From Mobula hypostoma (taxonomy: Eukaryota): a stretch of 64,000 nt of DNA. How positions within the stretch are numbered: position 1 is the first letter of the stretch; each line of letters begins with the position of its first letter. This document shows positions 19,225 to 63,746 of the stretch, in pieces. The notes beneath the pieces were generated by a model that had not been told where the DNA came from, ran no database searches, and was given only the letters and a program-made list of their open reading frames with translations. Where the stretch lies: NCBI RefSeq assembly GCF_963921235.1, contig NC_086097.1:132496001-132560000 (forward strand). The letters are read 5' to 3'. The position numbers were made by a program, and so were the translations under genes.

Positions 19225-19545
19225 AAGGTGGGTGGCCACTGTTCCCATTTGCCCTCCTGACCTCCCCCCCCTCCTCCTTCCTTTCCAATCAGATTCCATC
19301 AGCTGCAGCCTCTTCCTATCGCCTCCCAGCCTCTGTCACTATGTTCACTCTCCCCTCAACCATCTGCCTGTCATCCCTCTTCATCTGGATCCACTGATCG
19401 CTTGCTCCACCCTTTTCCTTGACCAATTTCTGTCAGTTATTGGCTATCTCTCCTTCATAATTTCGCCCTGATGAAGGGTCAGCCATTTATTTCCCTTCAA
19501 TGATGCTGCCTGACCTATTGTGTTTCTCTAGCATCTTGTGTGTAA
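19225..19545 (+). mobile_element. PLE terminal region (old)
   Basis: Pyrimidine-rich tract, then CCCTGATGAAGGGTC (5' half of the hammerhead), then GATGCTGCCTGACCT. Confidence 0.65.
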
Positions 19546-26974: not shown

Positions 26975-29550
26975 TACACTGTCCAAATGGTACCAATGCT
27001 CAGATCATCTCACTGAGCAGCAGCCACTTCCCCTGAACTCAATTCTGGCAGCTGATTTGTCTTCTGAGCAGTCAGGTTACAATAAACTTGGGGGATGGAG
27101 TCATCAGGAGCCCCCAATTGATCCACCACTCGCTCCTCGTCCCTGACCAGTCCCTCATGTGCCCGTCAGGACAAAGCATCAGCATCAATGTTCCTGCTTC
27201 CCAGCTGGTACTTCAGGCTGAAATCATAGGCGGACAATGCCACCAACCACCGATGGCCTGTGGCATCCAGTTTCACCGAGGTCAGGATATAAGTTAGGGG
27301 GTTGTTTTCTGTCCTCACCTCAAACTTGGTCCTGTAGAGGTAGTCACTCAGTTTATCCACCACTGCCCATTTCAACGCCAGAAATTCTAACTTGTGCGTG
27401 GGATAGTTTTTCCTCGGAGGGCGACAGACTCCGGCTGACAAACGCAACGGGCTTCAGCCCGGAGCCCTGATCCTGATACAGGATGCCCCGTAAAACCCTC
27501 TCGGCTGGCATCCGTGTGCAGTACATACGATAATCAGGGGTCCGCAAACACCAGCACCGGCATCTGGGTCAGCAGCTCCTTCAGCAACTGAAAGGCATCC
27601 TCATATTTTGCATCCCACCTCAATCCAAAGGGCTCCGATGGGCTAAGATACTCTCCACCCTCCTGTCTTTTTTTCCTCCTCCCTTTCCTCCCCAAGGGAG
27701 GGTAACCACACAGAAGCTGATTCAAAGGGTGACTCACTTTTGCGTAGCCTTTCACAAACCTCCGATAGTAACTACAGAACCCAAGGAACAAGCAAAGAGC
27801 ACTCACAGTCTGGGGCCTTGGCCAAGTGGTAACTGCCTCAGTCTTAGCTGGGTTTTTAGCTACCCCATCCCATAAGACTATGTGCCCAATGTAGCTAAAA
27901 GATGTTTGGCAGCACTGGCACTTCTCCAGGGAAAGATTTAACCCTTCAGCTTTCAGGCAGCCCAGCACCTTCAGCAGCCTCATTTCATGTTCTTGCAAGA
28001 TGGATACAAATACTATGAGGTCACCCAGATATACCAATACCTCAAGCGTTCATATCCCCCACCATCTTCTCCATGACCCACTGGAAGGTTGCAGGAGCTC
28101 CCAAGATGCCCTGGGGCATTCTTTCAAACTGGAAAAATCCCAGGGGACATAAATGCCATTTTCTGTTTGTCGGCCTCACTCATGGGGATCTGGTAATATC
28201 AACTCCTCATGTCCAGCACACTGAACCATTTTGCACCACTCAGGCAGGCCGAAGTGTCTTCAATCCTTGGGACCGTACACTGGTCAGGGATGGTGTGCCT
28301 GTTCAGAGTCCTATAGTCCACACACATCTGTACCTTCCCATTCTACTTTCGGGCCACTACTACAGGGGACACATAGGGGCTTCGGGACTCAGTGATGAAC
28401 CCAGCTTCCTTCAACTTACACAAATGCTGCCGAACGTCCTTCTCTGCAGGGTCCAGGTGCTGTGACCTTTTTCTGAACGGGGTATCCTTAGTCACCTGGA
28501 TAGTGTGACGCGTGCCCTTGAAACAACCCACATCAAACTCGTCAGTGGAAAAGACACCTTCCAGCTTCAATATCTTCTCTACCAGCCTCCTCTTCCAACC
28601 TGCAGGAACTGGAGAATCCCCAAAGTTGAATGAATCAGGGGTCAACTTTCTCCCCTTTTCCAATAGTTTCTTCCTGGCCTTTCTCAACGGGACACTAGAC
28701 ATTACCGTCACCAGGAACAAATGCGCCAGGGGCATCCCCTACCTGAAGGTGAACTCCCTCTTCGTAGTGTTCCTGACCATCACTGCCATCCTGCATTCCT
28801 GTACAACCGAGGGCTTCTGCAATTAGGGCTTCACCAGTACCCCAGCAGGAAATCTCGACTCCCCTTCATGGTCTTCTGGAGCATCCACTAAGAGGGCTTC
28901 ACCCTCAGGCACTCTGGGAAATTTGGGGGTCCCCATCACTCTTGCTACTTCCCTAAGCCGTACTACCATTGGCTTCGACTGGGTGAACCACACAGTCCCT
29001 TATTTAAATTCGGTATCTGGCCCAATGCTACCAGCACTTCCTCATATGCAGCTTGAAACCCTGGGTGCATGGACAATATTCCTAGAAAGCTCTCATCAGC
29101 CTTCTCCTTGCAGGCCCCCATGAGCTTCTTCAAAAAAGGGGTGTTGGTCCCCACCAGAATTGAAATGCCGCCCTTCTCAACAGGGTCCGGACAAACCAGC
29201 ACCAATGTATCAAGGACCTCAGACACTCCCACAACGGCCTCCGAGAACTCCAACTTCACTGACAAATATCCGTCGTATGGATAATCACTAGCACTAAGCC
29301 CCCAGATCTCCACTGCCCTGAATGATGTCAATGGTAAATGCTTCAGATACCAGTTGTAAAACGAATGGTACAACAACGTGACCTGCGACCCAGTGTCGAG
29401 TATGGCTTTAGCATATATACACTCTATTCGCAGCGACCCACTGGAGTATGGACCAACTAAGCCTTCAGGAATTGGGCCTTTCGCTTTCAGGGGTTCCTTG
29501 GTACATTGCTGGGAACGAGTTCCCCCAGAGACACCAGGTCGTTTCCTCAC
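26975..29550 (-). pseudogene. Gypsy pol (protease-RT-RNase H) with multiple frameshifts
   Basis: Protease AILDTGSQVT. RT SRSPYVSPVVVARK, YLGDLIVF (YLDD decayed) and FLGFCSYYRRFV. RNase H NYPTHKLEFLALKWAV..FEVRTENNPLTY..NIDADALS. Confidence 0.92.
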
Positions 29551-30799
29551 TGAGTCTTATCTAAGTTTTCCCAACGACTCTCCCTGCTGAGGTACCTGGG
29601 GGCTCACCCTCTTTCTGGCATGATACCTGCTGCTAGCAGCCCTCCGCATTGTTTGTCCCCCTGGGGAATCCGCTGTCCCATCAACTCCATTATGGGGGGG
29701 GGGGTCACACCCACTGATAACAACCAACATATCTCCGTTCTCAACTCTGCCACAATCTCCTCTACCGCTCCCTGGGGTAGGCTATCTGTGGTCACTTCAC
29801 CACAGGGGACCACTACCGAGGACTGTACCCTGCTGACAGAGTCCTCCCGTGCCTCTGCTGCGTTCTCCTCTTCCCGTACCTCTCTGATCAGCTCAACAAA
29901 AGATGGAAGGGGGCGTGTCTTACGAGACTGTCAGAGACCCCCAGCAATCAGGTCATGGGACTGGGCGCTTCTGTTTATCTGGTCAATTCTTAACTGATCC
30001 ACCACAGCTGCCTGAATGATCCCTCTGTGCTACAAGCAATTTAACCGCCTCTCCAGCCAAAAAATAAAAGCAGAAAGCTTCTCCCCCTTCTCCTGATGCA
30101 TGTTCCGAAACCCCACCATGAGCTCCAATAGGCTTCCAGTCAGACCAAAAGCATTGTCCAGTGCTTGCAGATAATTGACAGCTGTCGCTAAGGGAGGTTT
30201 CAACCTGACAGCTCTCACAAAGTCAGCGGCCCGCCCATTCAAACTTCCAACCAATCTCTGTCGCTTTTCATCATCAGAGTACTGCCACTCATCTAACAAC
30301 TGAGAGGTCCGCTCCGCCCAAGTCTCATATTCCTCCTCCCCTTTAGGGGTGGGCGTTATTCCAGAGGATAGGCGGAGCCTGCCCATAGGCGACCTTAAGC
30401 ATCTGGGGGCCCGTTTCAAGAGTTAATGTGGGGCCCTACCCCCGCTTCCCAAAAAAAAGAAAGAAAAAAGGCAAATATTCAAGTTGGTTTGCATCAATAA
30501 TGGTATAATTTCGGACTTAAATGTTGATGCATTATATGCACTTTCGGCATAATGGACAGACAGCTCAACATAATCCAAGCAATTCTTTTAATTAAAAATG
30601 ACATTTCTTGCTTTGGAGTGGGAAGCCGCGCCCTTTTCAGCAACTAGTCTGCATTGAATGGCACTATGTGTTAGGTATCAGCTGACATAAGAAGAGCTTA
30701 AACAATTTCCCTCTAATTAAATTAATAACAAAAGCAATGTCATATTTAATGAAAATTCACACTTTATTTATTCAATGAACAGTGTCTGAAAGTTAACTA

Positions 30800-31151: not shown

Positions 31152-33708
31152 CTAGAACTTCACCACCCTCCTGTGCTTGAGTGCTGAGAATGCTTTAATG
31201 AGCTCATCTTTGTCCAGCGATCTTGTTATTTCATGCTCAATTGATACCTGAGCAAGAGCTGACAGACGCTCCTGGAGCATAGTTATTCTCACATGCGTTT
31301 TGATGAACATTAGCCTCGAAAAAATTCTCTCTCCACTCGCTACAGTCACAGGCACTGTCAGCATGAGTCTTAGAGCAATGGTGAGGTTAGTATACAGTTC
31401 ATCCAGATTGTTGCTGTTAATATAGCTCAGAATCTGCAGGCCGGTGGTTTCTTTTGCAGGCACGGCACTGACAGCAGCCGACACCTCGCGCAAAAGGTCC
31501 TCAGCATCCATATTACCAAATGTCCTCTCCATGTTTACGCAGCTGTCTTTCAGTGTGCGACTTTGGGTGGCTTTTTTCATTTCCTCTCTACCATAAATGA
31601 AGCCAAACAGACTGTAAAATGACTCCATCAGCTTGAAGCGCTCACTAATGCCTGTGATGGCAGAGTCCACTAGTGGAAGGAAAACTTCTCTCTTGTACCG
31701 TTCCTCGGGTGCCACTGTCAGGGAAGGATCTGCACTTTGGGACTTGTACTGGAACTGGAGTTTTGGTTTTCTGATTCGTGCAGTAGGAAAGACCATTGGC
31801 ATCCCTATCTCTTCAGCTACGTCTCTGGCATCGGTTTGGGTGGATGAAAGGCCGTTTTCTCTATATTCCTTGAGAAATTTCAGAACATATTCCACCTCGC
31901 GCTGTAGCACATCGATTCCCACGTGGGCTCCGGAGCAGCTTGCTGACATGATTCACCTCATGTAAAACGTTGTACCAGATGATAACAGTAAGCAGGAATT
32001 TCCATGACATGATCTCCTGTTCTAGGCCTCTGGCTGCAGATGTGGTTTCACTGTCACCTTTCCGTGTGGCATGTTCAATCAGTGACAGGAGCGCATTGCC
32101 AACATCGGGAAGCTGGTAGCACAGGACTTCCACACTTCCCACATGGCACTCCCATCGCGTGTTGGATATGGCCTTGAGGGTCATCCGTGGCATATTCTCC
32201 TTGAAAAGCTCTCATCTCTGTGTCGATGAGTTGAATAGTGTGTATAGATGATGCAGCACCCCAAAGAAGCTGTTGATTTTGCAGCATCGACAATGATTAG
32301 GTTTAGGCTGTGGCTGGCGCATGGCACGAACAGTGCTTTTGTGTTAATATCTAGCACCCTCTTCTGCACCCAGCTATTGTTCCCCCGCATATTGCTCCCG
32401 TTATCATATGCCTGCCCCCCGCATTTTGAGATATCTAATCCTAATTTCTCCATATGCTTTAAGAAAACGTCAGTTAGGCCTGCACCTGTTGTGTCAAGCA
32501 CTGGTAGGAAACCGGCAAAATGCTTACTGACAGTAGCTCTGACATTTACTTGGCATGTGACAACATGAACTGCTCTATGTGTGCAGCATCAGTGATGCAG
32601 TCCATTATCACCGAGTAGTAATGTGATTGCTTTACTCTCTCTGTTATCACTTCCAGTGTCTTGACTCCAATAAGTGTGATTAACTCATTTGGTATGGTTT
32701 TCCCCATGTAGTGGTCAGCAATCTTTTTTCTCTGCTTGTCTGACATGTTCAGTCATCACTGGGTCGAACTCGGCAAGCAGCTCCACCAGACCTAGAAAGT
32801 TCCCATTATTTGGTTCATGTAGGGTGGAGTTGTGGCCACAGAAAGCAAGGTTTCATTCTGCAAGCTGACAGACTATGGCAATGAACTTCTTCATGACATA
32901 ATTCCAGTGTTTTTTTCCAGCATTTGCGTTCCTTGGTACGTGCTGTCAATGGCAATGTGCGTTCTTAAGCGCGTTTCCAGCTTGCGCCAGCTCTCCATGT
33001 TAGCACAGTGCGCACTTGACTTCTCATGATCCTGGAGTGTGAGAGTGAGTTGCTCCCACGCTCTGAAACCTCCGCAAGTGAGACTGTGATTTCGCTTGCC
33101 AAATAGGGTACAGCAGAAACAGAAGATTGAATCAGATGATTCTGAGTACACTAACCATGACCTACAAATGGTTTCTCCATTTTTCATCTTCATAAGATGT
33201 CCTTGGTAAAACAACGGCCTGATTGGCTCTGTGGAAAGTTAATGTCCTCTAACTGAACGGGACCTCTCCTAACAATGTCGATCCGTTGGTCACTGGTAAT
33301 ATGCGTTGGCCAACGTGCCGGATCGGTCTCTGTGAATGTCAGTGGGTCTTTCTCTCTGTCTGGTGTGCTGGTGGCGGCTTCTCCCTCACCTGTCTCAGTT
33401 GTAGCACTGTCATCATGCTGTGGTGCTTGTTCATCAAACAAAGTTTGGTCATCATTATCACCATCTGTTTGAGTAGAATTGTTCTTCTCATTTTCGTTAC
33501 TCTAATTATCATCTCCTGTACCGGTTACACTGTCACTTGGCACTGCAGTCCCATGCTGTGACGATGGTGCAGCAGCAACTGCAGTTGGCGGGCCTTTTAC
33601 AGATGCTGGACCAAAGAAAGATGTAACTTTTGGGAGACTATGTAGACGTTTTGTTTTGTTGTCTAATATTTTCCATTTTTCAGCACCACTAGGATAGGAG
33701 TGTTTCAT
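31152..33708 (-). pseudogene. hAT transposase, frameshifted into ~7 ORF pieces
   Basis: MKHSYPSGAEK N-terminus, TTF-type zinc finger RSWLVYSESSDSIFCFCC, YYSVIMDCITD, GQAYDNGSNMRG, FVPCASHSLNL, TRW, and dimerisation domain TVPVTVASGERIFSRL..IKT..QERLSAL. Confidence 0.92.
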
Positions 33709-39579: not shown

Positions 39580-40405
39580 CACACACACAAAATGATGGAG
39601 GAACACAGCAGGTCAGGCAGCATCTATAGAAATAAATAAACAGTCAAAGTTCTGGGCTTTGACCCTTCATCAGGACTAGAAAGGAAGGGGGAAGTTGCCA
39701 GAATAAAAAGATGGGGGATGGGAAGGGGGACAAGCTAGAGTGTGATAGATGAAGACGTGGGTGGGACAGGTAAAAGGTTGGAGAAGAAGGAATCTGATAG
39801 GAGAGGAGAGTGGACCATGGGAGAAAAGAAAGGAGAGACACCTTGGGGAGGTGACAGGTAGATGAGGAGATGTAAGAGGGCAGAATGGGGAATAGAAGAG
39901 GGAATGGGAAGGGGGAAAGAAAGTCCATTTTCCGAGCTTTACCTGGAACTGCTTCCCAACTTTTTCCACACTGCATAAATGACTGCATTGGTGCTGCTTC
40001 TTGCACCCATGCAGATCTCGTCAACTTAATCAATTTTGCTCCAACTTTCACCCTGTCCTTAAATTCACTTGGTCCATTTTTGACACCTCTCTCTCCTTTC
40101 TCAATCTCTCTGTCTTTATTGCTAGAGTCAAACTGTCTACTGACATCTTTTATAAACCTACCAAATCTCGTGGTTATCTTGACTACACAGTACCTCTTCC
40201 CAACCTGTCACCTGTAAAAATTTTATTCCCTTTTCTTAGTTCCTTTGTCTCCACCGCATCTGTTCCAGGATGAGACTTTCCTTTCCAGGACATCATAGAT
40301 GTCCCCTTTCTTCAAAGAACGAGGTTTCCTTTCCACAATTATTGATGCCTCCCTCACGCACATCTCTACCATTTTCTGGGCATCTGCCTCACCCCATCTT
40401 CCCTC
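39580..40405. mobile_element. PLE fragment: inverted pLTR (minus, ~39580-39920) fused to an RT fragment (plus, ~39925-40405)
   Basis: Plus strand gives CINDCIGAASCTHADLVNLINF, NFHPVLKFTWSIFDTSLSFL and LSTDIFYKPT..GYLDY (PLE RT motif C and thumb). Minus strand carries the terminus with a hammerhead-like motif at 39641-39678. Confidence 0.85.
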
Positions 40406-42899: not shown

Positions 42900-43290
42900 G
42901 TCATTCTGTTCCCCTATCCCAGTTTCACTCTGCCCCCTCCCCCAGCTGCCTATCACCTCCCTCATGGTTCTGCCTACTTCTACTACCCATTGTGTTTTCC
43001 CCTATTCCTTCTTCACCTTTCCTGCCTATCACCTCCCTGCATTCCCCCCCCCCACCCCTTTATCTTTCCCTTTACTGGTTCTTCACCTGGAACCTACCAG
43101 CCTTCTCCTTCCCACCCTCCCCCCACCTTCTTTATAGGGCCTCTGCCCCTTCCCTCTACAGTCCTGACGAAGGGTTCCAGCCGGAAACGTTGACTGATCG
43201 TTTCCAGGGATGCTGCCCGACCTGCTAGTTCCTCCAGCATGTTGTGAGTGTTGCTTTGACCCCAGCATCTGCAGAGTATTTTGTGTTTAC
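42900..43290 (+). mobile_element. PLE pLTR terminus with hammerhead motif
   Basis: Pyrimidine tract, CAGTC-CTGACGA-...-GAAA-CGTT-GACTG, then GATGCTGCCCGACCTGCT..CCAGCATCTGCAGA. Confidence 0.85.
43159..43196 (+). ncRNA. Minimal type I hammerhead ribozyme motif (stem II mismatch)
   Basis: Stem I CAGTC/GACTG, CUGACGA and GAAA core, GUU triplet. Confidence 0.6.
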
Positions 43291-45700: not shown

Positions 45701-46370
45701 CCAAGCAAGAAATGATCAGACTTGGTTGAGGGATGTAGCCTCCATTACACGAGAGAAATCAAACACAGATTTGTGAAACACCATCACTCAGTCAGCAGTC
45801 ATGATCCTGGGCTTTCTACTTCTGACTGCCTGCAGCTTCCTCCACTGCCATAGTGAGGCCCAATGTGAACTAGTGGAGCACATATTCCCTTATGCTAAGG
45901 CCCTTTCCAACCTCCTAAATGAATCCTGAATTCTACAACTTCAAGTCAACATCTTCCCCATCATTTCCCCTTATTATGCCTGTATATTAGAATCCCATAA
46001 GAGACTCCTGGATAGGTACCTAGTGTTTAGGAGAATAGAGGGTTATGGGTAACCCTAGGTAATTTCCAAAGTAAGTACATGTTCGACACAGCATTGTGGG
46101 CCAAAGGGCCTGTATTGTGCTGTAGGTTTTCTATGTTTCTGTTTCTATATTCCATTCTCATCCTATTTCTATAAAGTATCTCCAAAAAAGTCAGTTATCT
46201 TGTTCCTTATCACCTGTTTCATATTAATGTACATAGTTTTTTTTTAATCTTACACCTCACAGCTCCCCCCACCAAACAACAGGAATTCTGCAGATGCTGG
46301 AAATTCAAGCAACACACATCAAAGTTGCTGGTGAACGCAGCAGGCCAGGCAGCATCTCTAGGAAGAGGTG

Positions 46371-46408
46371 CAGTCAACGTTTCAGGCCGAGACCCTTCGT
46401 CAGGACTA
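46371..46408 (-). ncRNA. Minimal type I hammerhead ribozyme motif
   Basis: Minus strand TAGTC-CTGACGA-AGGGTCTCGGCCT-GAAA-C-GTT-GACTG. Confidence 0.7.
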
Positions 46409-47326
46409 ACTGAAGGAAGAGTGAGTAAGGGATTTGAAAGTTGGAGGGGGAGGGGGAGATCCAAAATGATAGGAGAAGACAGGAGGGGGAGGGATAGAGC
46501 CAAGAGCTGGACAGGTGATAGGCAAAAGGGGATACGAGAGGATCATGGGACAGGAGGTCCGGGAAGAAAGACAAGGGGGGGGACCCAGAGGATGGGCAAG
46601 AGGTATATTCAGAGGGACAGAGGGAGAAAAAGGAGAGTGAGAGAAAGAATGTGTGCATAAAAATAAGTAACAGATGGGGTACGAGGGGGAGGTGGGGCCT
46701 TAGCGGAAGTTAGAGAAGTCGATGTTCATGCCATCAGGTTGGAGGCTACCCAGACGGAATATAAGGTGTTGTTCCTCCAACCTGAGTGTGCCTTCATCTT
46801 TACAGTAGAGGAGGCCGTGGATAGACATGTCAGAATGGGAATGGGATGTGGAATTAAAATGTGTTAAAATGAATTAAAATCCACATCCCAATCCCATTCT
46901 GACATGTCTATCCACGGCCTCCTCTACTATAAAGATGAAGCCACACTCAGGTTGGAGGAACAACACCTTATATTCCATCTGGGTAGCCTCCAACCTGATG
47001 GCATGAACATCGACATCTCTAACTTCCGCTAATGCCCCACCTCCCCCTCGTATCCCATCTGTTACTTATTTTTATGCACACATTCTTTCTCTCACTCTCC
47101 TTTTTCTCCCTCTGTCCATCTGAATATACCTCTTGCCCATCCTCTGGGTCCCCCCCACCCCCGTCTTTCTTCCCGGACCTCCTGTCCCATGATCCTCTCG
47201 TATCCCCTTTTGCCTACCACCTGTCCAGCTCTTGGCTCCATCCCTCCCCCTCCTGTCTTCTACTATCATTTTGGATCTCCCCCTCCCCCTCCAACTTTCA
47301 AATCCCTTACTCACTCTTCCTTCAGT

Positions 47327-47364
47327 TAGTCCTGACGAAGGGTCTCGGCCTGAAACGTCGACTG
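47327..47364 (+). ncRNA. Minimal type I hammerhead ribozyme motif (best-conserved copy)
   Basis: TAGTC-CTGACGA-AGGGTCTCGGCCT-GAAA-C-GTC-GACTG. All core nucleotides are present and the GUC triplet ends at 47359. Confidence 0.78.
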
Positions 47365-48869
47365 CACCTCTTCCTACAGATGCTGCCTGGCCTGCTGCGT
47401 TCACCAGCAACTTTGATGTGTGTAGCTCCCCCCACCTATGCTTTGGAAATGGTAAACCCTCCCGTCTCCTTTCAGTTCTGAGGAAGTGCCAATGACCCAT
47501 AATGCTACGGATTTCTCTACCCCCAGATGCTGTTTGACTGGCTGAGTCCTTCCATCATTTTTCTGTGTTTGCTTCAGTGATACTGATGTTGTTTGGCCAG
47601 GATGCTAGGGTAACTCCCATCCTGAACTTCACAGCAGTGTAATGGGATCCCTGTCACCCACTTCACCTTAACTCCTCATCTGGAATGCAGATTTCTCTCT
47701 GTATGGCTCTGGAGTATCAGCCAGAGGCAATTCTCTCAACCTACACCTTCTGACTTAGAGGAAAGCAGGCTTCCAATTCAAGCCACAGCTGAAATCCTGT
47801 AAAAACAATAGCATTATTTGATTATAAGCAAAAACAGTGCAATACACTCACAGGTTAGTCATTGTCTGAGTTTATATAGCCATTTTTTTTGCTAGCTGCA
47901 TAATCCTGATGGACGGGGCCTGTAATTAACCAGGATCATTTTGTCAACAGAAGACATAATTCCAAAGTATATAATTACACTTTTTCTCTCTATTGCAACA
48001 CTTTAGTGAGAACAAGAATGTCAAAAAGGAGTAAAGCTACATCATTTGAGAGCTCTTAAATATGGACTCGGGTCAGCCTGGCCAAGAGAATAAATATATT
48101 CCAGAGACTCCATCCGTTATTCATTTGCAAGTTCATCATATTGCATCTACTTTTAATTTTTGCTGAGAAAAGATGAAAGTGAAATGGTTACTCTATTCAT
48201 GTGTTGAAGATATATGAGATTAATGAATTGGACCTCGATATCAGAGAGCTGAAAACAACAGTGGATAATTACCTGGCAGATGAAATTATCACAATCTTTG
48301 CTTGACTGTGGATTCCATTGTTGTACTCGGTAATCTGTTCCTGAAAGGCTTCCATTAGTCTGCCACTCACAACCTTGGAGGAAGCCCTTCAGCAACCCCC
48401 ATGCCTGTGCATCCAATAAGATCACCTGCACCCTCACTCCTCTATCTCTACAGGTTGCATGGCCTTTAATATCATTACATAACAAGAATAGACCAATTTT
48501 ATTCTTCTTAAAAGATCCACAGTTCTTTTTAAAGTGAGTTGGGGAGGAAACCCAACTATGCAAGCAAGGTTTTCTGACTGCACTCTCGATTATCCCAACT
48601 CTCAATTTCAGGCTCCAATTTGCCTTGCAAAATGTTTCTGGCCACATTGAAGTATCTGATGTCCACCTTATCTTGCGACTACTTGAGGTATGTCCAAGTT
48701 CATTGATCCATTCCTGCATTCAACTTAATTTCTGAAATTGTCTAATTTCTAGAGAAATACAGTATGAGCTCTCTCACTTCAAAGAAATCCACCTTCATAT
48801 TCCTTGATGACATAGACGAAGGCCATTTGGCTCTTCAGAGTATTCCTATCAGTCCCCTTTCCCCACTGT

Positions 48870-52272: not shown

Positions 52273-55200
52273 CATTTATTTTGGCAGCTTTTTTTCATGA
52301 AAATTCCTTTGAAAAGAAAAATTAAACCGAAGTATTGCTGATGCAGAATTGGGCCAAAGCAAAATGTTATAAGGGAAATAGTCAGTAATATTATGAGTAT
52401 CAGCAGGAAGACAATCTCCTAAGGAGTTATATCAATGTGAGGACAGAAAATTATTCCTCACACCTCAAGTACTTTCAATAATTCATCTGCCTGTCAGGAT
52501 AAAATTATTTTACTCCACCTATATAAGAAATAGTGAATACCTACAAAGGTTTTAGTAGAATGTATCATTGGACTTGTTTCAATGACACTCTTGAACCATG
52601 AGTTCCAGCGAAATTATAAGCAATTTTTTTCATGTTCTATTTAAGTGATGTAGGCACCATGGGTTCAACCATTCTGTTGGCATGTTGGCATTTTGCTGAT
52701 GGCCCAGTTATTGTAATAAAATGCCAGCAGGGCCAGATGGAATTAGTGACAGTTCTCCCATTTAAAGGTGGCTTGGAAGCATTTGGGTAGGTACTTGGAT
52801 TGGATAGAAATGGGTCAAATTCAGAAAAATTTGATTAGCCTACAGTCAGAATGGACAAGTCAGGATGAAAGATCTGTTTCCATGCTGTACAACTCTACAT
52901 CTCCATGACTCTATGACTTACAGTGGCGAACCCACCCAGGGGAACTGTGCCAGGTTAATTGTTCCCATTCTACATACACAAGATCCCACTACCTCTCAGA
53001 TCACCCACTGGAGGAGTGGGTAGTAGCAATCAGAGAGTTTATATAGTTGGTCTACAGTAGCTCCCCCCAGCCCTGCCCCAGTGGCTGAAGAATTACTCCT
53101 CTATTCAGTGTCAATTCAGAGACATGATGGACATGATCTTCAGGAACTGATTTCAGTGAAGACACTCTAAGACAGCATCATTGCCCTGACACATTTTCTC
53201 AATCCCTCTGGATGAACTATTGAATCTAGCCCCCACAAAATGTTTTGCAGGAGTAGAGCTAACTCTCAGAACTGCAGTTTCTATACACTGGAACAAAAGA
53301 ACAGGGGGCCAATATCCAGGAGACGATGTGAAGTTCTCAGGAATAGGAAACAAGGTTTATTCTCACAAGAGTCAACCAACAAACAGGCAGCTTCTTGCTG
53401 TGGTCACAGGTTTTTTATCCTGCTGTTTGATGGGAAGCAGGTGCGTGTAGTTAGTGGTACTTGGGAATGATTAGGATCTAAATGAGGTGATCGAGGCCCA
53501 AATCTTGAGGCAAATGGCAAGGTGGGGGATTGCCAGAAGAGTCCATGACAGGATGTTATTTGAATTGGTGTACACTTACAGGTTGAGCTCCAAGCCAATG
53601 ATGGCTCATTTGCCAAAAAATTTCAGATGATGGGCCTTATACTCAACACTTGCAAGGTGACAAACTCCTACCAACCTCTCCCCAGTTTACTACGCTGCCT
53701 GACAGTTATATTAAACTATAAATGCTCATGGTGAGAATCTGGAAAACCATAACCACCTACCTCCCTCAGGAGCCACTGCACAATGAAGACAAACATCGAA
53801 CATAAAATTCACCACACCCTTCCATACCCTACTAAAGCCCTAGGTTGGCATCACAATCCAGGTTAAATCTTGATTTTGCCTCTACTTTATGAATGTAATT
53901 TACACAATCTTTGTGATTTCATGGGCTTTCTCTGGGTTCCATTGTTACCACTCATTTCCCAATGACAGGCAGGGTGGCTGGTTAACTGGCTTCTCCAAAT
54001 TACTCCTGGTGTTTGTGTGAGTGGTGAATTCTGGCAAGGAGTTGAGGGGAATGTGTGTGAATAAAATAATTGTAAATAAAATACAGATTTCACTGGCAGA
54101 GTGATCTTTTTCCATGCTGTGACTCTATGGCTCTAAACAACAGAGCAATAGGGCAAACTAAACTGTTGGTCAAAGTATTTGGTTAATTCTCAATGGGCTT
54201 TTCCTCTGCTGTGAATAAAACACTAACTCTACTCCCAGCCTTCTGAAAGAAAGGCAGGTCTTTCATACAACATAAAAAAGACCTAAGTACTTCTTATGTT
54301 ACATGACCAAATCTGACTAACATCTATGATTCAGTCCTTTCAATAACACATTGCAAATAAAAAACACAAAGAATTACTGATGCCTACTGGAATAAAAACA
54401 ATATTGTGGGTTTCCCTGAGGTTGGTTGTCATAGTTACACTAAGTCGAGGTTTTCCATTGCAAGTTCCTCAGAAGAGTGTTGATTTCAGTGTCCTACTCT
54501 CTCTCTCTCAATGCACTATAAGTCGTCGCAGTGGCCTAACAGGTGTAATGTCTGCAGGCTGTTCTTGGAGAAACATGCCACAATAGAAGTGACACTCTAC
54601 CAGACATAGGGAATTGTTGCCACTGATTTATTGAAAGGGGTAAGGGGTGGGTGGGTACTCCATAAGGGTCAAAGGCATTGGTGAAGAATAGGGCTGGCAA
54701 AAGTCATGAGCAAGGAGATGACAGAAAGAAGAGCAGACTGCCAGAGGAAGGTTCTAGGGCAGTAGGTGAGAATATGACTGCGTTCTCTGAGTACGTGCTG
54801 TTCAGGAAATGCAGGCAGGCGTCCTATCCACTTTGCTTGCTCCCATGGGCTGCAGATGAATTGTTCTGCCCTGAAAGATTGGCTTCCTTCCTGTCGCAGC
54901 AGTAAGGAGCCTAGAATCATCCGGACATTAGGAGTAGCAGTCTTGAATGGTCCTGAAGCCAGGAAGTTGAGACTGACCCTGACCCTGCTCTCCAAGGGAA
55001 AAACAGTCCAGCTAAAAGTGTGAGCTATTATCCGAGGTTGCAAAATGTCACAGATCCCAGAAAGATCAAAGAATGAAGTATGCGAGTAAGCCCTTTAAAT
55101 GCCATTGTTTCAAAATTGGGTTAATATAACCGGGACGCTCTTTGAATAACTAAAAACTATTGGTCCTCAGATGTGATAAAATGACCAGTGCTGATGAGTT

Positions 55201-55657
55201 TTGTGCGTCTCACTATCATTGATGCCTTATGGAGAAATCTTATGCTGGAACAATGGGACTGGCCTCATGAGTCCCATGCTGAGCAATAAATATACAAGTT
55301 TCCCTACGGCCATTAAGGCAACCAGCACTGAGCTGGGCACCTTAGCCCTCTGGGTCAGCAAGTTTCAATGGCACCATACTATGTTTACTCAGAGTTATGA
55401 GAATAAATTGCTGAGCCACTGTATATCGACCTTCTGGGGTCTCAGATGATGTCACTTCTCTGATGATGTCAGATACAGGAAATCCCTTTGTATTGTATTG
55501 TAATGCAACAACTTTGCATTAAGAATCAACCTAAGTATGGAGCTGCTCATTAATAAGTGCACACTTAAAATTATTTACCTATTGTGATTTATGCATGTAA
55601 ATTAAATGCCTATACAGCTGCCTGTGACAGTGCTACATTGTATAAGAAGCAAGCACA

Positions 55658-57577
55658 TTGGATAGTATCAATTCCAAAGAAGTAGCATACAAATTAGCCA
55701 GAGAAAGTGGCTCACCTGAGGACTGGGAGAAATTCAGAGTTCAGCAGAGGAGGACAAAGGGCTTAATTAGGAAGGGGAAAAAAGATTATGAGAGAAATCT
55801 GGCAGAGAACATAAAAACGGACTGTAAAAGCTTTTATAGATATGTAAAAAGGAAAAGACTGGTAAAGACAAATGTAGGTCCCCTGCAGACAGAAACAGGT
55901 GAATTGATTATGGGGAGCAAGGACATGGCAGACCAATTGAATAATTACTTTGGTTCTGTCTTCACTAAGGAGGACATAAATAATCTTCCAGAAATAGTAA
56001 GGGACAGAGGGTCCAGTGAGATGGAGGAACTGAGTGAAATACATGTTAGTAGGGAAGTGGTGTTAGGTAAATTGAAGGGATTGAAGGCAGATAAATCCCC
56101 CGGGCCAGATGGTCTGCATCCTAGAGTGCTTAAGGAAGTAGCCCAAGAAATAGTGGATGCATTAGTGATAATTTTTCAAAACTCGTTAGATTCTGGACTA
56201 GTTCCTGAGGATTGGAGGGTGGCTAATGTAACCCCACTTTTTAAAAAAGGAGGGAGAGAGAAACCGGGGAATTATAGGCCGGTTAGCCTAACGTCGGTGG
56301 TGGGGAAACTGCTGGAGTCAGTTATCAAGGATGTGATAACAGCACATTTGGAAAGCGGTGAAATGATCGGACAAAGTCAGCATGGATTTGTGAAAGGAAA
56401 ATCATGTCTGACGAATCTCATAGAATTTTTTGAGGATGTAACTAGTAGAGTGGATAGGGGAGAACCAGTGGATGTGGTATATTTGGATTTTCAAAAGGCT
56501 TTTGACAAGGTCCCACACAGGAGATTAGTGTGCAAACTTAAAGCACATGGTATTGGGGGTAAGGTATTGGTGTGGGTGGAGAATTGGTTAGCAGACAGGA
56601 AGCAAAGAGTGGGAATAAACGGGACCTTTTCAGAATGGCAGGCGGTAACTAGTGGGGTACCGCAAGGCTCAGTGCTGGGACCCCAGTTGTTTACAATATA
56701 TATTAATGACTTGGATGAGGGAATTAAATGCAGCATCTCCAAGTTTGCGGATGACACAAAGCTGGGTGGCAGTGTTAGCAGTGAGGAGGATGCTAAGAGG
56801 ATGCAGGGTGACTTGGATAGGTTGGGTGAGTGGGCAAACTCATGGCAGATGCAATTTAATGTGGATAAATGTGAAGTTATCCACTTTGGTGGCAAAAATA
56901 GGAAAACAGATTATTATCTGAATGGTGGCCGATTAGGAAAAGGGGAGGTGCAACGAGACCTGGGTGTCATTATACACCAGTCATTGAAAGTGGGCATGCA
57001 GGTACAGCAGGCGGTGAAAAAGGCGAACGGTATGCTGGCATTTATAGCGAGAGGATTCGAGTACAGGAGCAGGGAGGTACTACTGCAGTTGTACAAGGCC
57101 TTGGTGAGACCACACCTGGAGTATTGTGTGCAGTTTTGGTCCCCTAATCTGAGGAAAGACATCCTTGCCATAGAGGGAGTACAAAGAAGGTTCACCAGAT
57201 TGATTCCTGGGATGGCAGGTCTTTCATATGAAGAAAGACTGGATGAACTGGGCTTGTACTCGTTGGAATTTAGAAGATTGAGGGGGGATCTGATTGAAAC
57301 GTATAAGATCCTAAAGGGATTGGACAGGCTAGATGCGGGAAGATTGTTCCCGATGTTGGGGAGGTCCAGAACGAGGGGTCACAGTTTGAGGATAGAGAGG
57401 AAGCCTTTTAGGACTGAGATTAGGAAAAACTTCTTCACACAGAGAGTGGTGAATCTGTGGAATTCTCTGCCACAGCAAACTGTTGAGGCCAGTTCATTGG
57501 CTATGTTTAAGAGGGAGTTAGATATGGCCCTTGTGGCTACAGGGGTCAGGGGGTATGGAGGGAAAGCTGGGTTCTGA
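55658..57577 (+). CDS. CR1 ORF2 C-terminal part: intact reverse transcriptase domain, no APE endonuclease (639 codons)
   Basis: SPGPDG, NYRPVSLTS, QHGFVKGKSC, YLDFQKAFDKVPH, GVPQGSVLGP, FADD and LVRPHLEYC. The TTG 'start' is the truncation point. Confidence 0.9.
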   Translation: MDSINSKEVAYKLARESGSPEDWEKFRVQQRRTKGLIRKGKKDYERNLAENIKTDCKSFYRYVKRKRLVKTNVGPLQTETGELIMGSKDMADQLNNYFGSVFTKEDINNLPEIVRDRGSSEMEELSEIHVSREVVLGKLKGLKADKSPGPDGLHPRVLKEVAQEIVDALVIIFQNSLDSGLVPEDWRVANVTPLFKKGGREKPGNYRPVSLTSVVGKLLESVIKDVITAHLESGEMIGQSQHGFVKGKSCLTNLIEFFEDVTSRVDRGEPVDVVYLDFQKAFDKVPHRRLVCKLKAHGIGGKVLVWVENWLADRKQRVGINGTFSEWQAVTSGVPQGSVLGPQLFTIYINDLDEGIKCSISKFADDTKLGGSVSSEEDAKRMQGDLDRLGEWANSWQMQFNVDKCEVIHFGGKNRKTDYYLNGGRLGKGEVQRDLGVIIHQSLKVGMQVQQAVKKANGMLAFIARGFEYRSREVLLQLYKALVRPHLEYCVQFWSPNLRKDILAIEGVQRRFTRLIPGMAGLSYEERLDELGLYSLEFRRLRGDLIETYKILKGLDRLDAGRLFPMLGRSRTRGHSLRIERKPFRTEIRKNFFTQRVVNLWNSLPQQTVEASSLAMFKRELDMALVATGVRGYGGKAGF

Positions 57578-60017: not shown

Positions 60018-62034
60018 ATAGAAGTATAGCATAGCAAAGATGAGTGGGAAGCCGGAGGATTGGAAAACTTTTAAAGAGCAACAGAGATAACTAAAAAGGT
60101 AATACACGGAGAAAAAAATGAGGTATGAAGGTAAACTAGCCAAGAATATAAAGGAGGATAGTAAAAGCTTCTTTAGGTATGTGAAAAGGAAAAAAATAGT
60201 TAAGACCAAAATTGGGCCCTTGAAGACAAAAAAGGGTGAATTTATAATGGGGAACAAGGAAGTGGCAGATGAGTTGAGCAGGTACTTTGGATCTGTCTTC
60301 ACCAGCGAAGACACAAACAATCTCCCAGATATAATAGTGACAAAAGGACCTAGGGTAATGGATGAACTGAAGGAAATTTATATTAGGCAGGAAGTGGTGT
60401 TGGATAGACTGTTGGGGCTGAAGGCTGTTAAGTTCCCGGGACCTGATGGTTTGCATTCCAGGGTACATAAGGAGGTGGCTTTAGAAATCATGGATGCATT
60501 GGTAATCATTTTCCAATGTTCTATAGACTCAGGATCAGTTCCTGTGGATTGGAGGGTGGCTAATGTTGTCCCACTTTTCAAGAAAGGAGGGAGAGAGAAA
60601 ACGGAATTATAGACTGGTTAGCCTGATGTCAGTGGTGGGAAAGATGCTGGAGTCAATTATAAAAGATGAAATTATGACACACTTGGATGGCAGTAACAGG
60701 ATAGGTCCGAGTCAGCATGAATTTACGAAGGGGAAATCGTGCTTGACTGATCTTCTGGAATTTTTTGAGGATGTAACTATGAAAATGGACAAGGGAGAGC
60801 CAGTGGATGTAGTGTACCTGGACTTTCAGAAAGTCTTTAATAAAGTCCCACATAGGAGATTAGTGGGCAAAATTAGGGCACATGGTATTGGGAGCAGAGT
60901 ACTGACATGGACTGATAATTGGCTGGCTGACAGAAAACAAAGAGTAGCGATTAATGGGTCCCTTTCGGAATTGCAGGCAGTGACCAGTGGGGTACCACAG
61001 GGTTCAGTGCTGGGACCGCAGCTGTTTACAATATACATTAATGATTTAGATGAAGGGATTAAAAGTAACATTAGCCAATTTGCAGATGACACAAAGCTGG
61101 GTGGCAGTGTGAAATGTGAGGAGGATGGTATGAGAATGCAGGGTGACTTGGACAGGCTGGGTGAGTGGGCGGATGCATGGCAGATGCAGTTTAATGTGGA
61201 TAAATGTGAGGTTATCCACTTTGGTGGAAAGAACAGGAAGGCAGATTATTATCTAAATGGAGTCAAGTTAGGAAAAGGGAAGTACAACAAGATCTAGGTG
61301 TTCTTGTACATCAGTCACTGAAACACTGAAAGCAAGCATGCAGGTACAGCAGGCAGTGAAGAAAGCTAATGGCATGCTGGCCTTCATAACAAGGGGAATT
61401 GAGTATAAGAGCAAAGAGGTCCTTCTGCAGCTGTACAGGGCCCTGGTGAGACCACACCTGGAGTACTGTGTGCAGTTTTGGTCTCCAAATTTGAGGAAGG
61501 ATATTCTTGCTATTGAGGGAGTGCAGTGTAGGTTCACAAGGTTAATTCCCGGGATGGCGGGACTGTCATATGTTGAAAAATTGGAGCAACTGGGCTTGTA
61601 TGCACTGGAATTTAGAAGGGTGAGAGGGGATCTGATTGAAACATATAAGATTATTAAGGGATTGGACACGCTGGAGGCAGGAAGCATGTTCCCGCTAATG
61701 GGTGAGTCCAGAACCAGAGGCCACAGTTTAAGAATAAGGGGTAGGCCATTTAGAACAGTTGTGGAAAAACTTTTTCACCCAGAGAGTGGTGTATGTGTGG
61801 AATGCTCTGCCCCAGAAGGCTGTGGAGACCAAATCTGTGGATGTTTTCAAGAAAGAGATGGATAGAGCTCTTAAAGATAGTGGAATCAAAGGTTATGTGG
61901 ATGAGGCATGAACTGGATACTGATTATGGATGAACAGCCATGATCACAGTGAATGGCAGTGCTGGCTCAGAGGGCCGAATGATCTACTCCTGCACCTATT
62001 GTCTATTGTCTGTTGATCCCTTCTTTGCAGAAGT
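60018..62034 (+). mobile_element. 5'-truncated CR1 with frameshifted ORF2 (RT)
   Basis: ORFs 60118-60612, 60563-61297 and 61338-61865 are collinear with 55658-57577; FADD motif; (TATTGTC)n tail. Confidence 0.93.
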
Positions 62035-62473
62035 GGGCCACAGCAGGAGTGATTGATAAGTTCGTGGCCCAGGGTAGAAAGAGGTGACTTATTAACTTCA
62101 AACCTTCTGCATTATCACTCAAAGAGTTAAACTGCACGTGCATGTAACAAGAGTGTCTTGGACCTCCAGGTGGTCCACAGCAGGGGTGATTTATAAGTTT
62201 GTGGCCTAAGGTAGAAGGAGCTGAGTTATACAGCTCTTGTTACATGCACGTGCAGTTGAACTCTTTCAGTGAAAATGCAGAACGTTTGAAGTTAATAACT
62301 CATCTCCTTCTACCCTAGGCCATGAACTTATCAATCACCCCTGCTGTGGACCACTTCTGGAGGTCCAAGACGCCAACTTCTACAAAGAGGGGATCCGTAT
62401 GCTCCACGACCGCTGGACTAAGTGTGTAAATGTAGGAAAAATAAATGTGCCAGGTTTTCTAAAATTGATTCCT

Positions 62474-63746
62474 ACTGCCCTCTACCCTGAAGCCCCATCA
62501 ATTTGCCTATCATACTAACAGGTCAACAGAGGATGCCATCTCCACAGCACTTCACTCTGCCCTGACCCACCTGGACAGCCCTAATTTTTACGTCAGAATG
62601 CTGTTCATTGACTTTAGTTCGGTATTCAATACTGTGATCTCCTCCAAGCTGATCACCAAATTTTGCCAGCTTGGTATCAGCATATCCCTCTGCAATTGGA
62701 CTTTGGACTTTCTGATTAACAGACCCCAATCAGTTAAGTTAGACAACCTCTCCTCCTCCACTCTCACCCTGAACACCGGCGTGCCTCAAGGCTGTGTACT
62801 GAGCTCTCTTCTGTACTCCCTTTTCACCTATGACTGCGTTCCTGTACATGGTTCTAACTCCATAATCAAGTTCGCAGACGACACCACGGTGGTTGGTCTG
62901 ATCAGAGGGGATGACGAGACAGCCTACAGGGACGAGGTCCAGCACCTGGCTGCGTGGTGTGCCGACAACAATCTAACCCTTAACACCCAGAAGACCAAGG
63001 AGATCATTGTGGACTTCAGGCATGCTAGGAGCCACACTCTCGTCCCCATCTACATCAACGGAACTATAGTGGAGCGTATATCAAACTTTAAATTCCTTGG
63101 TGTCCACATTTCCGAGGATCTCACCTGGTCCCTGAACTCCTCCATCCTGATCAAAAAGGCGCAACAGCGCCTTTATTTCCTGTGGAGCATCAAGAAAGCT
63201 CACCTCTGTCCCAGGATACTGACGGACTTTTACCACTGTACCATTGAGAGCATACTCACCAACTGCATCTCAGTGTGGTATGGCAATTGTCCCATATCAG
63301 ACTGCAAAACACTCCAGCGTGCGGTGAAAATTGCCCAGTGGATTATCGGCACCCAATTGCCCACCATTGTGAACATCTACCATAAACGCTGCCTGGGCAG
63401 GGTGAAAAGCATTATCAGGGATGCATCAAACCCAAACCATGGACTTCTTACTCTCCTCCCATCCGGTAGATGCTATAAGAGCCTCCACTCCCGCACCAGC
63501 AGGCACAGGAAGAGCTCCTTCCCTGAGGCTGTGACACTGCTGAACCTCTCATCACAGCGCTAAGCAGTATTGCATCTGTATTGTACTGTCTCAGTACTTT
63601 TATATTTGTGTGCTGTAGCACTTTTTTTATTTGCAGTTATTTTGTAAATAACACTATTCTTTGCATTTCTGGTCAGATGCTAAATGCATTTCATTGGCTT
63701 TGTATCTGTACTCGGCACAATGACAATAAAGTTGAATCTAATCTAA
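62474..63746 (+). mobile_element. 5'-truncated Rex1/Babar-type LINE
   Basis: Open RT frame, 3' UTR, AATAAA and (AATCT)n tail. Confidence 0.88.
62598..63563 (+). CDS. Rex1/Babar-type RT C-terminal part (frame open from ~62475)
   Basis: QFAY..NRSTEDA upstream, [55 protein letters not shown] and PSGR.Y.S. Confidence 0.85.

Follow-up and report, generated by a model that had tools for sequence, protein, structure and literature searches.

Here we report that a 64,000-nucleotide window of ray DNA (the window being the whole stretch analysed) carries the minimal type I hammerhead ribozyme (min-HHR) of a Penelope-like element (PLE) terminal repeat twice, on opposite strands of one insertion in which two truncated element ends lie head to head within a 13-bp target-site duplication. 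We hold this explanation of the locus with considerable confidence, including its second part, that the ribozymes are likely inactive passengers that have stayed intact because the insertion is young. The features of the locus, in window coordinates, are as follows.

46261..46273, plus strand: left copy of the 13-bp target-site duplication, AGCTCCCCCCACC
46274..46864, minus strand: left arm, an inverted 5′-truncated copy of the right arm's PLE end
46274..46311, minus strand: 38-nt tail, found on the left arm only (34 nt if the final GCT is assigned to the element)
46371..46408, minus strand: twin hammerhead of the other arm, differing from the right-arm motif only by a U at position 17 (window 46376), which gives a GUU triplet
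46700..46864, minus strand: matching endonuclease C-terminus of the left arm, 94% identical to protein P0001
46865..46879, no strand: 15-nt filler where the two arms meet, in which short stretches of the neighbouring left-arm end (46851-46861) recur
46880..47423, plus strand: right arm, a 5′-truncated PLE 3′ end with endonuclease C-terminus, pyrimidine-rich spacer of ∼300 nt, hammerhead and 59 nt beyond
46880..47032, plus strand: GIY-YIG endonuclease C-terminus, 50 codons with the stop at 47030-47032, matching P0001 residues 318-372 at 87%
47327..47364, plus strand: minimal type I hammerhead motif, from sequence reading and the published descriptor (PMC4209133 Fig. S7)
47424..47436, plus strand: right copy of the target-site duplication, an exact 13-bp direct repeat of AGCTCCCCCCACC

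Helix I of the right-arm motif is formed by TAGTC (47327-47331) and GACTG (47360-47364), with U-G as its terminal pair. The core CTGACGA (47332-47338) is followed by an extra A (A47339), the helix II region (47340-47351), GAAA (47352-47355) and C15.2 G16.2 U16.1 C17 (47356-47359), which puts the predicted cut after C47359. All core positions are present (C3 U4 G5 A6 N7 G8 A9, G12 A13 A14 A15.1, U16.1 and H17), as is the palindromic ACGU without a loop III (47355-47358) that is a trait of PLE min-HHRs. The sequence bears out most of the original prediction, which had read the same helix I, CUGACGA core, extra A, GAAA and C-GUC, a stem III reduced to self-complementary ACGU, a complete set of core bases and a scissile position after C47359. 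Its helix II (GGGTC with GGCCT), however, is one pair too long and would leave a 2-nt loop; helix II is feasible as 4 bp (G-U, G-C, G-C, U-G) on a CUCG loop, or in a shifted register of 3 bp in which the extra nucleotide that separates position 9 from 10.1, A47339, pairs with U47351.

The type I descriptor search proposed with that prediction was run by re-implementing the min-HHR descriptor of Cervera and De la Pena 2014 (PMC4209133 Fig. S7), which allows 3-7 bp in helix I, 3-7 bp in helix II, a loop of 3-10 nt and G-U pairs, and requires GAAANNUH. It returned two matches in 64 kb, with C3 at 47332 (+) and 46403 (-). Across 1000 dinucleotide shuffles the mean was 0.004, with one match in 4/1000 and two matches in 0/1000. 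A looser descriptor of our own found both motifs and one unconvincing match at 55191 (shuffle mean 0.03, 200 shuffles), which was discarded as a hammerhead because it fails the published descriptor.

Each arm first carries a protein's final 50-55 codons with their stop codon, and C3 lies 300 nt after the stop, a placement downstream of the PLE open reading frame and within the terminal repeat that is typical of min-HHRs. A search with the left-arm peptide matched 9 proteins among 23 candidates (best identity 94%, E 2.6e-23), the best match, P0001, being a Mobula hypostoma protein, with others coming from Hypanus sabinus. P0001 has an N-terminal part that we read as reverse transcriptase (RT)-like, a CX4CxxC linker and a weak match to GIY-YIG (Pfam E 4.6e-4, below the curated cut-off); by way of this match, the arms carry the C-terminal GIY-YIG endonuclease that follows the RT in PLEs, and Pfam matched 0/2 of the arm fragments (54-57 aa) taken alone. 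The linker occurs in 4/9 relatives of the arm peptide and lies outside the truncated copy at 46274-47423. According to Craig et al. 2021 (PMC8557442), PLEs in which RT and endonuclease are separated by a CX2-5CxxC linker belong to Neptune or Nematis, and the linker motif of these relatives may point to a Neptune-type or Nematis PLE. Three ray gene models (P0003, P0007 and P0009), named after the host proteins ATP synthase subunit C3, VKORC1L1 and ABHD14A, also include this PLE peptide, either as an exonised repeat or as an annotation artefact.

Motifs of the same shape also occur outside the ray. A pattern scan of metagenome contigs gave at least 122 loci with at least 128 matches, and among the matches listed 22/122 loci also had a tblastn match to P0001. 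We aligned 83 distinct metagenome motifs from the matches listed with the two window motifs, after dropping duplicates and matches near contig ends. Each of the two inner helix I pairs, which the pattern does not fix, holds in 77/85 rows, and both partners have changed together 14 times at one pair and 39 times at the other among the 85 motifs listed; the outer pairs are weak (44/85 and 22/85 rows). The helix I covariation score was reached by 0/500 shuffles and all slid controls scored lower, bearing in mind that these are families of other organisms picked by our own pattern, that helix II is fixed by the pattern and that relatedness inflates the score. Core, palindrome and helix I pairing are conserved jointly across distant families, as expected under selection for cleavage. 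Among the matches listed, 6 metagenome loci on five contigs contain divergent opposite-strand hammerhead pairs (L048/L049, L009, L024, L058 and L071). The two arms at L048 differ at position 11.1, C in one and U in the other, and the sequence between them matches the PLE endonuclease on both strands.

That the ray motif resembles a hammerhead by chance is vanishingly unlikely. Such a reading could appeal to the Rfam searches, which gave 0 matches at the gathering threshold over the whole window and, at E<=10 over 46200-47600, 28 matches to hairpin and purine-rich families only, none a hammerhead and all below gathering, and to the ordinary folding energy of the 38-mer, which is not better than that of shuffles (z -1.24). 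It is refuted by the descriptor shuffles, of which just 4/1000 gave one match, by the PLE peptide match and by the covarying helix I of the same-shape motifs elsewhere; the motif also sits at the published position of the PLE hammerhead. A scan of viral contigs with the motif pattern gave 0 matches.

The original prediction had assigned the motif to a Penelope-like terminus, which stands, and had missed the second motif, the inverted layout, the duplicated target site and the tail. The insertion occupies 46274-47423 and consists of two 5′-truncated PLE ends, head to head, whose arms are separated by 17 substitutions over 547 nt (3.1%) and one 3-nt indel and whose 5′ truncation points are ∼12 nt apart. 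The two hammerheads lie ∼920 nt apart on opposite strands, which rules out the two arms as a cis dimer; the position-17 U of the left twin is consistent with CpG decay. The 13-mer AGCTCCCCCCACC has only 2 occurrences in 64 kb. The left-arm tail is shared by other copies of the family, which run on into it (loose ends behind 47423 and 47427), and one-sided tails have been described for PLEs (PMC8557442, PMC11167929). An inverted truncated copy combined with a one-sided 30-40-bp tail is a PLE signature (PMC8557442), and 46274-47423 displays both. The junction filler, with its repeats of the neighbouring arm end, resembles the product of templated repair.

The 34-38 nt between the two element ends, the 13-bp duplication and the ∼12-nt offset of the 5′ ends would be explained if each of the two nicked strands had primed synthesis, with two start sites in use, as the work on the Anolis element would suggest (Frangieh et al. 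2024, PMC11167929). The endonuclease would have cut each DNA strand once, the nicks lying 13 nt from one another; ribozyme-uncut RNA would then have been reverse-transcribed from two sites 34-38 nt apart; and both products would have ended near the same point before being joined through the short filler. A snap-back template switch is an alternative origin for the inverted arms. In the parent element, a tandem repeat-ORF-repeat transcript would carry two same-strand motifs, whose two ACGU palindromes could pair into a 4-bp helix III with the helix I strands exchanged between copies, and this RNA would be cut after C17, probably with the aid of the element's protein. The insertion as it stands today would appear to have neither an ORF nor an adjacent same-strand partner, and in its read-through RNA the arms would pair over ∼550 bp, a hairpin in which the motif is hidden.

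Both arms are uninterrupted across the cut site and for 64-102 nt past it, so the RNA that was copied was uncut or rejoined. This observation also favours a reading in which the motif persists in the family because it serves as a signal, structural or protein-binding, or simply hitch-hikes, while transposition has no need for cleavage. Anolis catalytic mutants were likewise unaffected in in vitro insertion (PMC11167929), and Naiad PLEs have spread without hammerheads (PMC8557442). We nevertheless consider it unlikely, given the joint conservation of core, palindrome and helix I pairs in distant families; at the locus it is compatible with our preferred explanation, a passenger ribozyme in a young truncated insertion, because the two differ only for the parent element.

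The family to which this passenger belongs is very abundant. Public contigs placed on 47150-47900 (751 nt) at 88% likeness numbered 92,861 in run X1, 46,391 in X5, 6,853 in X13 and 4,087 in X11, with contig depth falling to single-copy level past 47435; summed contig depth is not the same as copy number. Among the loose ends listed, many start before 47328-47329 in 4/4 runs and behind 47364 in 3/4 runs, a clustering which indicates that the similarity of diverged relatives extends over the ribozyme and ends at its borders. The module is thus conserved between subfamilies, though no compensatory helix I change was seen among the ray copies in the window, where 8 copies of the PLE terminal region are recognisable and only the two arms pass the published descriptor. 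Related PLEs have left older and decayed copies or fragments at 1-746, 2842-2959, 19447-19544, 39581-39692, 39927-40388, 43159-43275 and 47473-47570, with remnants of linker and endonuclease in 1-418 and of RT in 39927-40388. Just 3′ of the ribozyme, at 47369-47382, a pyrimidine run ending in AG and followed by ATG resembles a 3′ splice site and is similar in several copies.

Both arms carry G10.1-U11.1 (G47340-U47351) where the consensus is a G10.1-C11.1 pair. In the four runs, U accounts for 69-81% and C for 19-31% of the depth placed at 47351 (position 11.1), with the reservation that reference bias may inflate U. Since U is the majority among close copies in 4/4 runs, and is present in both arms, G10.1-U11.1 is not a private change and can be ruled out as a private inactivating one. 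The changes that are private to the right arm, at 47217 and 47262, where 96-100% of the placed depth differs, are neutral decay. With decay of ∼1.5% per arm (half of 3.1%), the chance of zero changes in 38 nt is ∼0.55, and because the arms differ by only 3.1% an intact ribozyme needs no selection.

A contig from a second organism (organism B, record 32) covers 47394-47900 with 9 differences and reaches 30 bases into the element, one short of the 31-base rule applied, and suggests, without proving, that the insertion is shared with that organism and predates a split of ∼1.7% flank divergence. The two runs guessed to be RNA (X13 and X11) gave no cover on the unique flank of the locus. Their lower CpG-decay shares (2-7% versus 4-12%) were set aside as evidence, as they may reflect contig simplification. 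Around 47336-47337 and 47399, the CpG at N7-G8 shows no variant of 3% or more in 4/4 runs, whereas neighbouring CpGs show 4-12% variation in the DNA runs, and T stands at the N7-G8 CpG in older copies within the window; the missing variation is probably a tool or filter effect. Contigs of X1 and X5 also contain joints that lead from 47358-47365 back to 47317-47329, and the joint from 47364 to 47328, with 3 bases between, occurs in both organisms. These joints suggest that at other places in these genomes a ribozyme unit of ∼40 nt is, on rare occasions, repeated head to tail; such tandems, if true, would be natural cis dimers.

Folding predictions argue against activity at the locus. The monomer is predicted to form a rod, with pairing of the core bases at 47334-47337 to those at 47356-47359; in the predicted read-through fold 37/38 ribozyme bases are paired with the antisense arm; and in RNA of the arm only, helix I and helix II have probabilities of at most 0.003. 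The active dimer is predicted at -11.5 kcal/mol versus -22.0 kcal/mol for two monomer rods, which is weak evidence because nearest-neighbour energies ignore the hammerhead core, and the downstream region with the tail folds no better than shuffles (z -1.22). Cleavage at the locus is unlikely because helix III lacks a loop, the second motif lies on the antisense strand and the motif is predicted to be buried in read-through RNA. A same-strand relative 4.2 kb upstream (43159-43196), with a full core and a G-G mismatch at 10.1-11.1, could serve as partner strand on a long transcript, but a transcript joining it to the motif at 47327-47364 would pass the antisense arm first; a transcript initiated within the right arm would escape the hairpin. 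Among published systems, PLE min-HHR monomers show no cleavage and dimers and trimers low cleavage (PMC4209133), and the Anolis PLE motif cuts only with its protein, has zero RNA-seq reads ending at its site and tolerates catalytic mutations, the mutants inserting normally in vitro (PMC11167929). The original prediction had implied a special copy, likely to cut, and here it is not supported: intactness fits neutral decay, the published monomers are inert and read-through RNA is predicted to pair 37 of the 38 bases with antisense sequence.

It would still be conceivable that the copy cuts in vivo after C47359, if a right-arm transcript paired in trans with a family transcript or were folded by protein. 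The core is complete, the two runs guessed to be RNA are rich in family sequence (6,853 and 4,087 contigs), the Anolis PLE hammerhead cleaves upon protein addition (PMC11167929), and G10.1-U11.1 is found in 8/56 published rows by our own count (PMC4209133). We consider this quite improbable in view of the helix I and II probabilities of the arm-only RNA, the low published activity even of cis dimers (PMC4209133), the lack of RNA-seq read ends at the Anolis site (PMC11167929) and the nearby private mutations, which are neutral decay. Alternatively, what could matter is the long inverted repeat itself, as a source of double-stranded RNA that feeds small RNAs or is edited, with the hammerhead incidental. 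The arms (∼550 bp, 97% complementary, 15-nt spacer) and an insertion that seems common to a second organism would suit this role, but inverted structures are a normal by-product of PLE insertion (PMC8557442) and the 3.1% drift between the arms bears no mark of constraint, making it a remote prospect. An inert passenger remains by far our preferred reading.

The motif was correctly recognised as a member of a class that is not new, as the original prediction itself had said; every trait of it is already in print (PMC4209133), and it is very likely inert at this locus. It shares with the PLE min-HHRs of Cervera and De la Pena 2014 (PMC4209133) the descriptor, the extra nucleotide, the palindromic 15.2-16.2, a 5-bp helix I, a U-rich 5′ flank and a location at the 3′ end of a truncated element. 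Motif pairs on opposite strands are described there too (one case in Fig. S4A), ∼100-700 bp apart in Schistosoma compared with ∼920 nt here. Helix II is short in the window motifs, 3-4 bp with two wobbles, unlike those min-HHRs. G10.1-U11.1 departs from their consensus G-C and is a minority state, seen in 8/56 published rows by our own count from machine-read text, S. mansoni (1) among them; its presence there removes both the possibility that it is a new variant and any bar to min-HHR membership, and in that paper G10.1-C11.1 is an emergent trait and not one demanded by the descriptor. None of the 56 rows is from a cartilaginous fish.

The closest proteins of the arm peptide resemble those of Neptune-type PLEs (PMC8557442) in having CX4CxxC before a GIY-YIG-like motif, and the insertion resembles such elements in its 5′ truncation, inverted copy and one-sided 30-40-bp tail; it differs in keeping only the last 50-55 codons, linker and RT being known from relatives. 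In Anolis Poseidon PAc (PMC11167929) two element ends are likewise split by a 30-40-nt tail and the template RNA is uncut, and two-strand cutting with extension would explain the head-to-head pair. PAc belongs to a different clade, with a different sequence and an AT-rich target preference, compared with the C-rich duplicated target here, and protein-assisted cleavage is a demonstrated property of the PAc element. Non-LTR retrozymes (Li et al. 2026, bioRxiv 10.64898/2026.07.22.740005) similarly place a type I hammerhead in PLE-derived non-coding repeats, and hammerhead retrozymes were reported in the one chondrichthyan genome of that study. They are, however, head-to-tail tandems with a ribozyme per unit, whereas the locus is head to head with coding remnants and its motifs lie on opposite strands. 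A literature search for Penelope or Neptune elements in cartilaginous fish returned nothing on this family and was too limited to show that the family is unpublished.

Several other features occur in the window. RT open reading frames (Pfam RVT_1) lie at 55646-57577, 60114-62006 and 62469-63563, the last also matching ALKBH8_N; the first two are 77% alike, and CR1-type LINE is a putative label. A hAT transposase C-terminus is found at 31152-31952 (-) (Pfam Dimer_Tnp_hAT, E 4.5e-8), an open reading frame with a protease-like LDTG motif and zero Pfam matches at 28963-29556 (-), and a further inverted, internally repeated region of ∼340 nt at 62028-62371.

The motif class is published and has very many copies, of which this is one, and the locus has little significance as such. 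It is a natural record of a PLE insertion, with both ends, the 13-bp duplication and uncut ribozymes preserved, and is consistent with the in vitro model of 2024 (PMC11167929). A more far-reaching scenario, which we regard as very unlikely, is that solitary ray hammerheads meet in trans via ACGU or are folded by protein, creating cutting sites in host transcripts genome-wide, with head-to-head copies silenced by their antisense arm. If solo copies did cut in trans or with protein, this would bear on the role of the PLE hammerhead, of which ray genomes hold very many.
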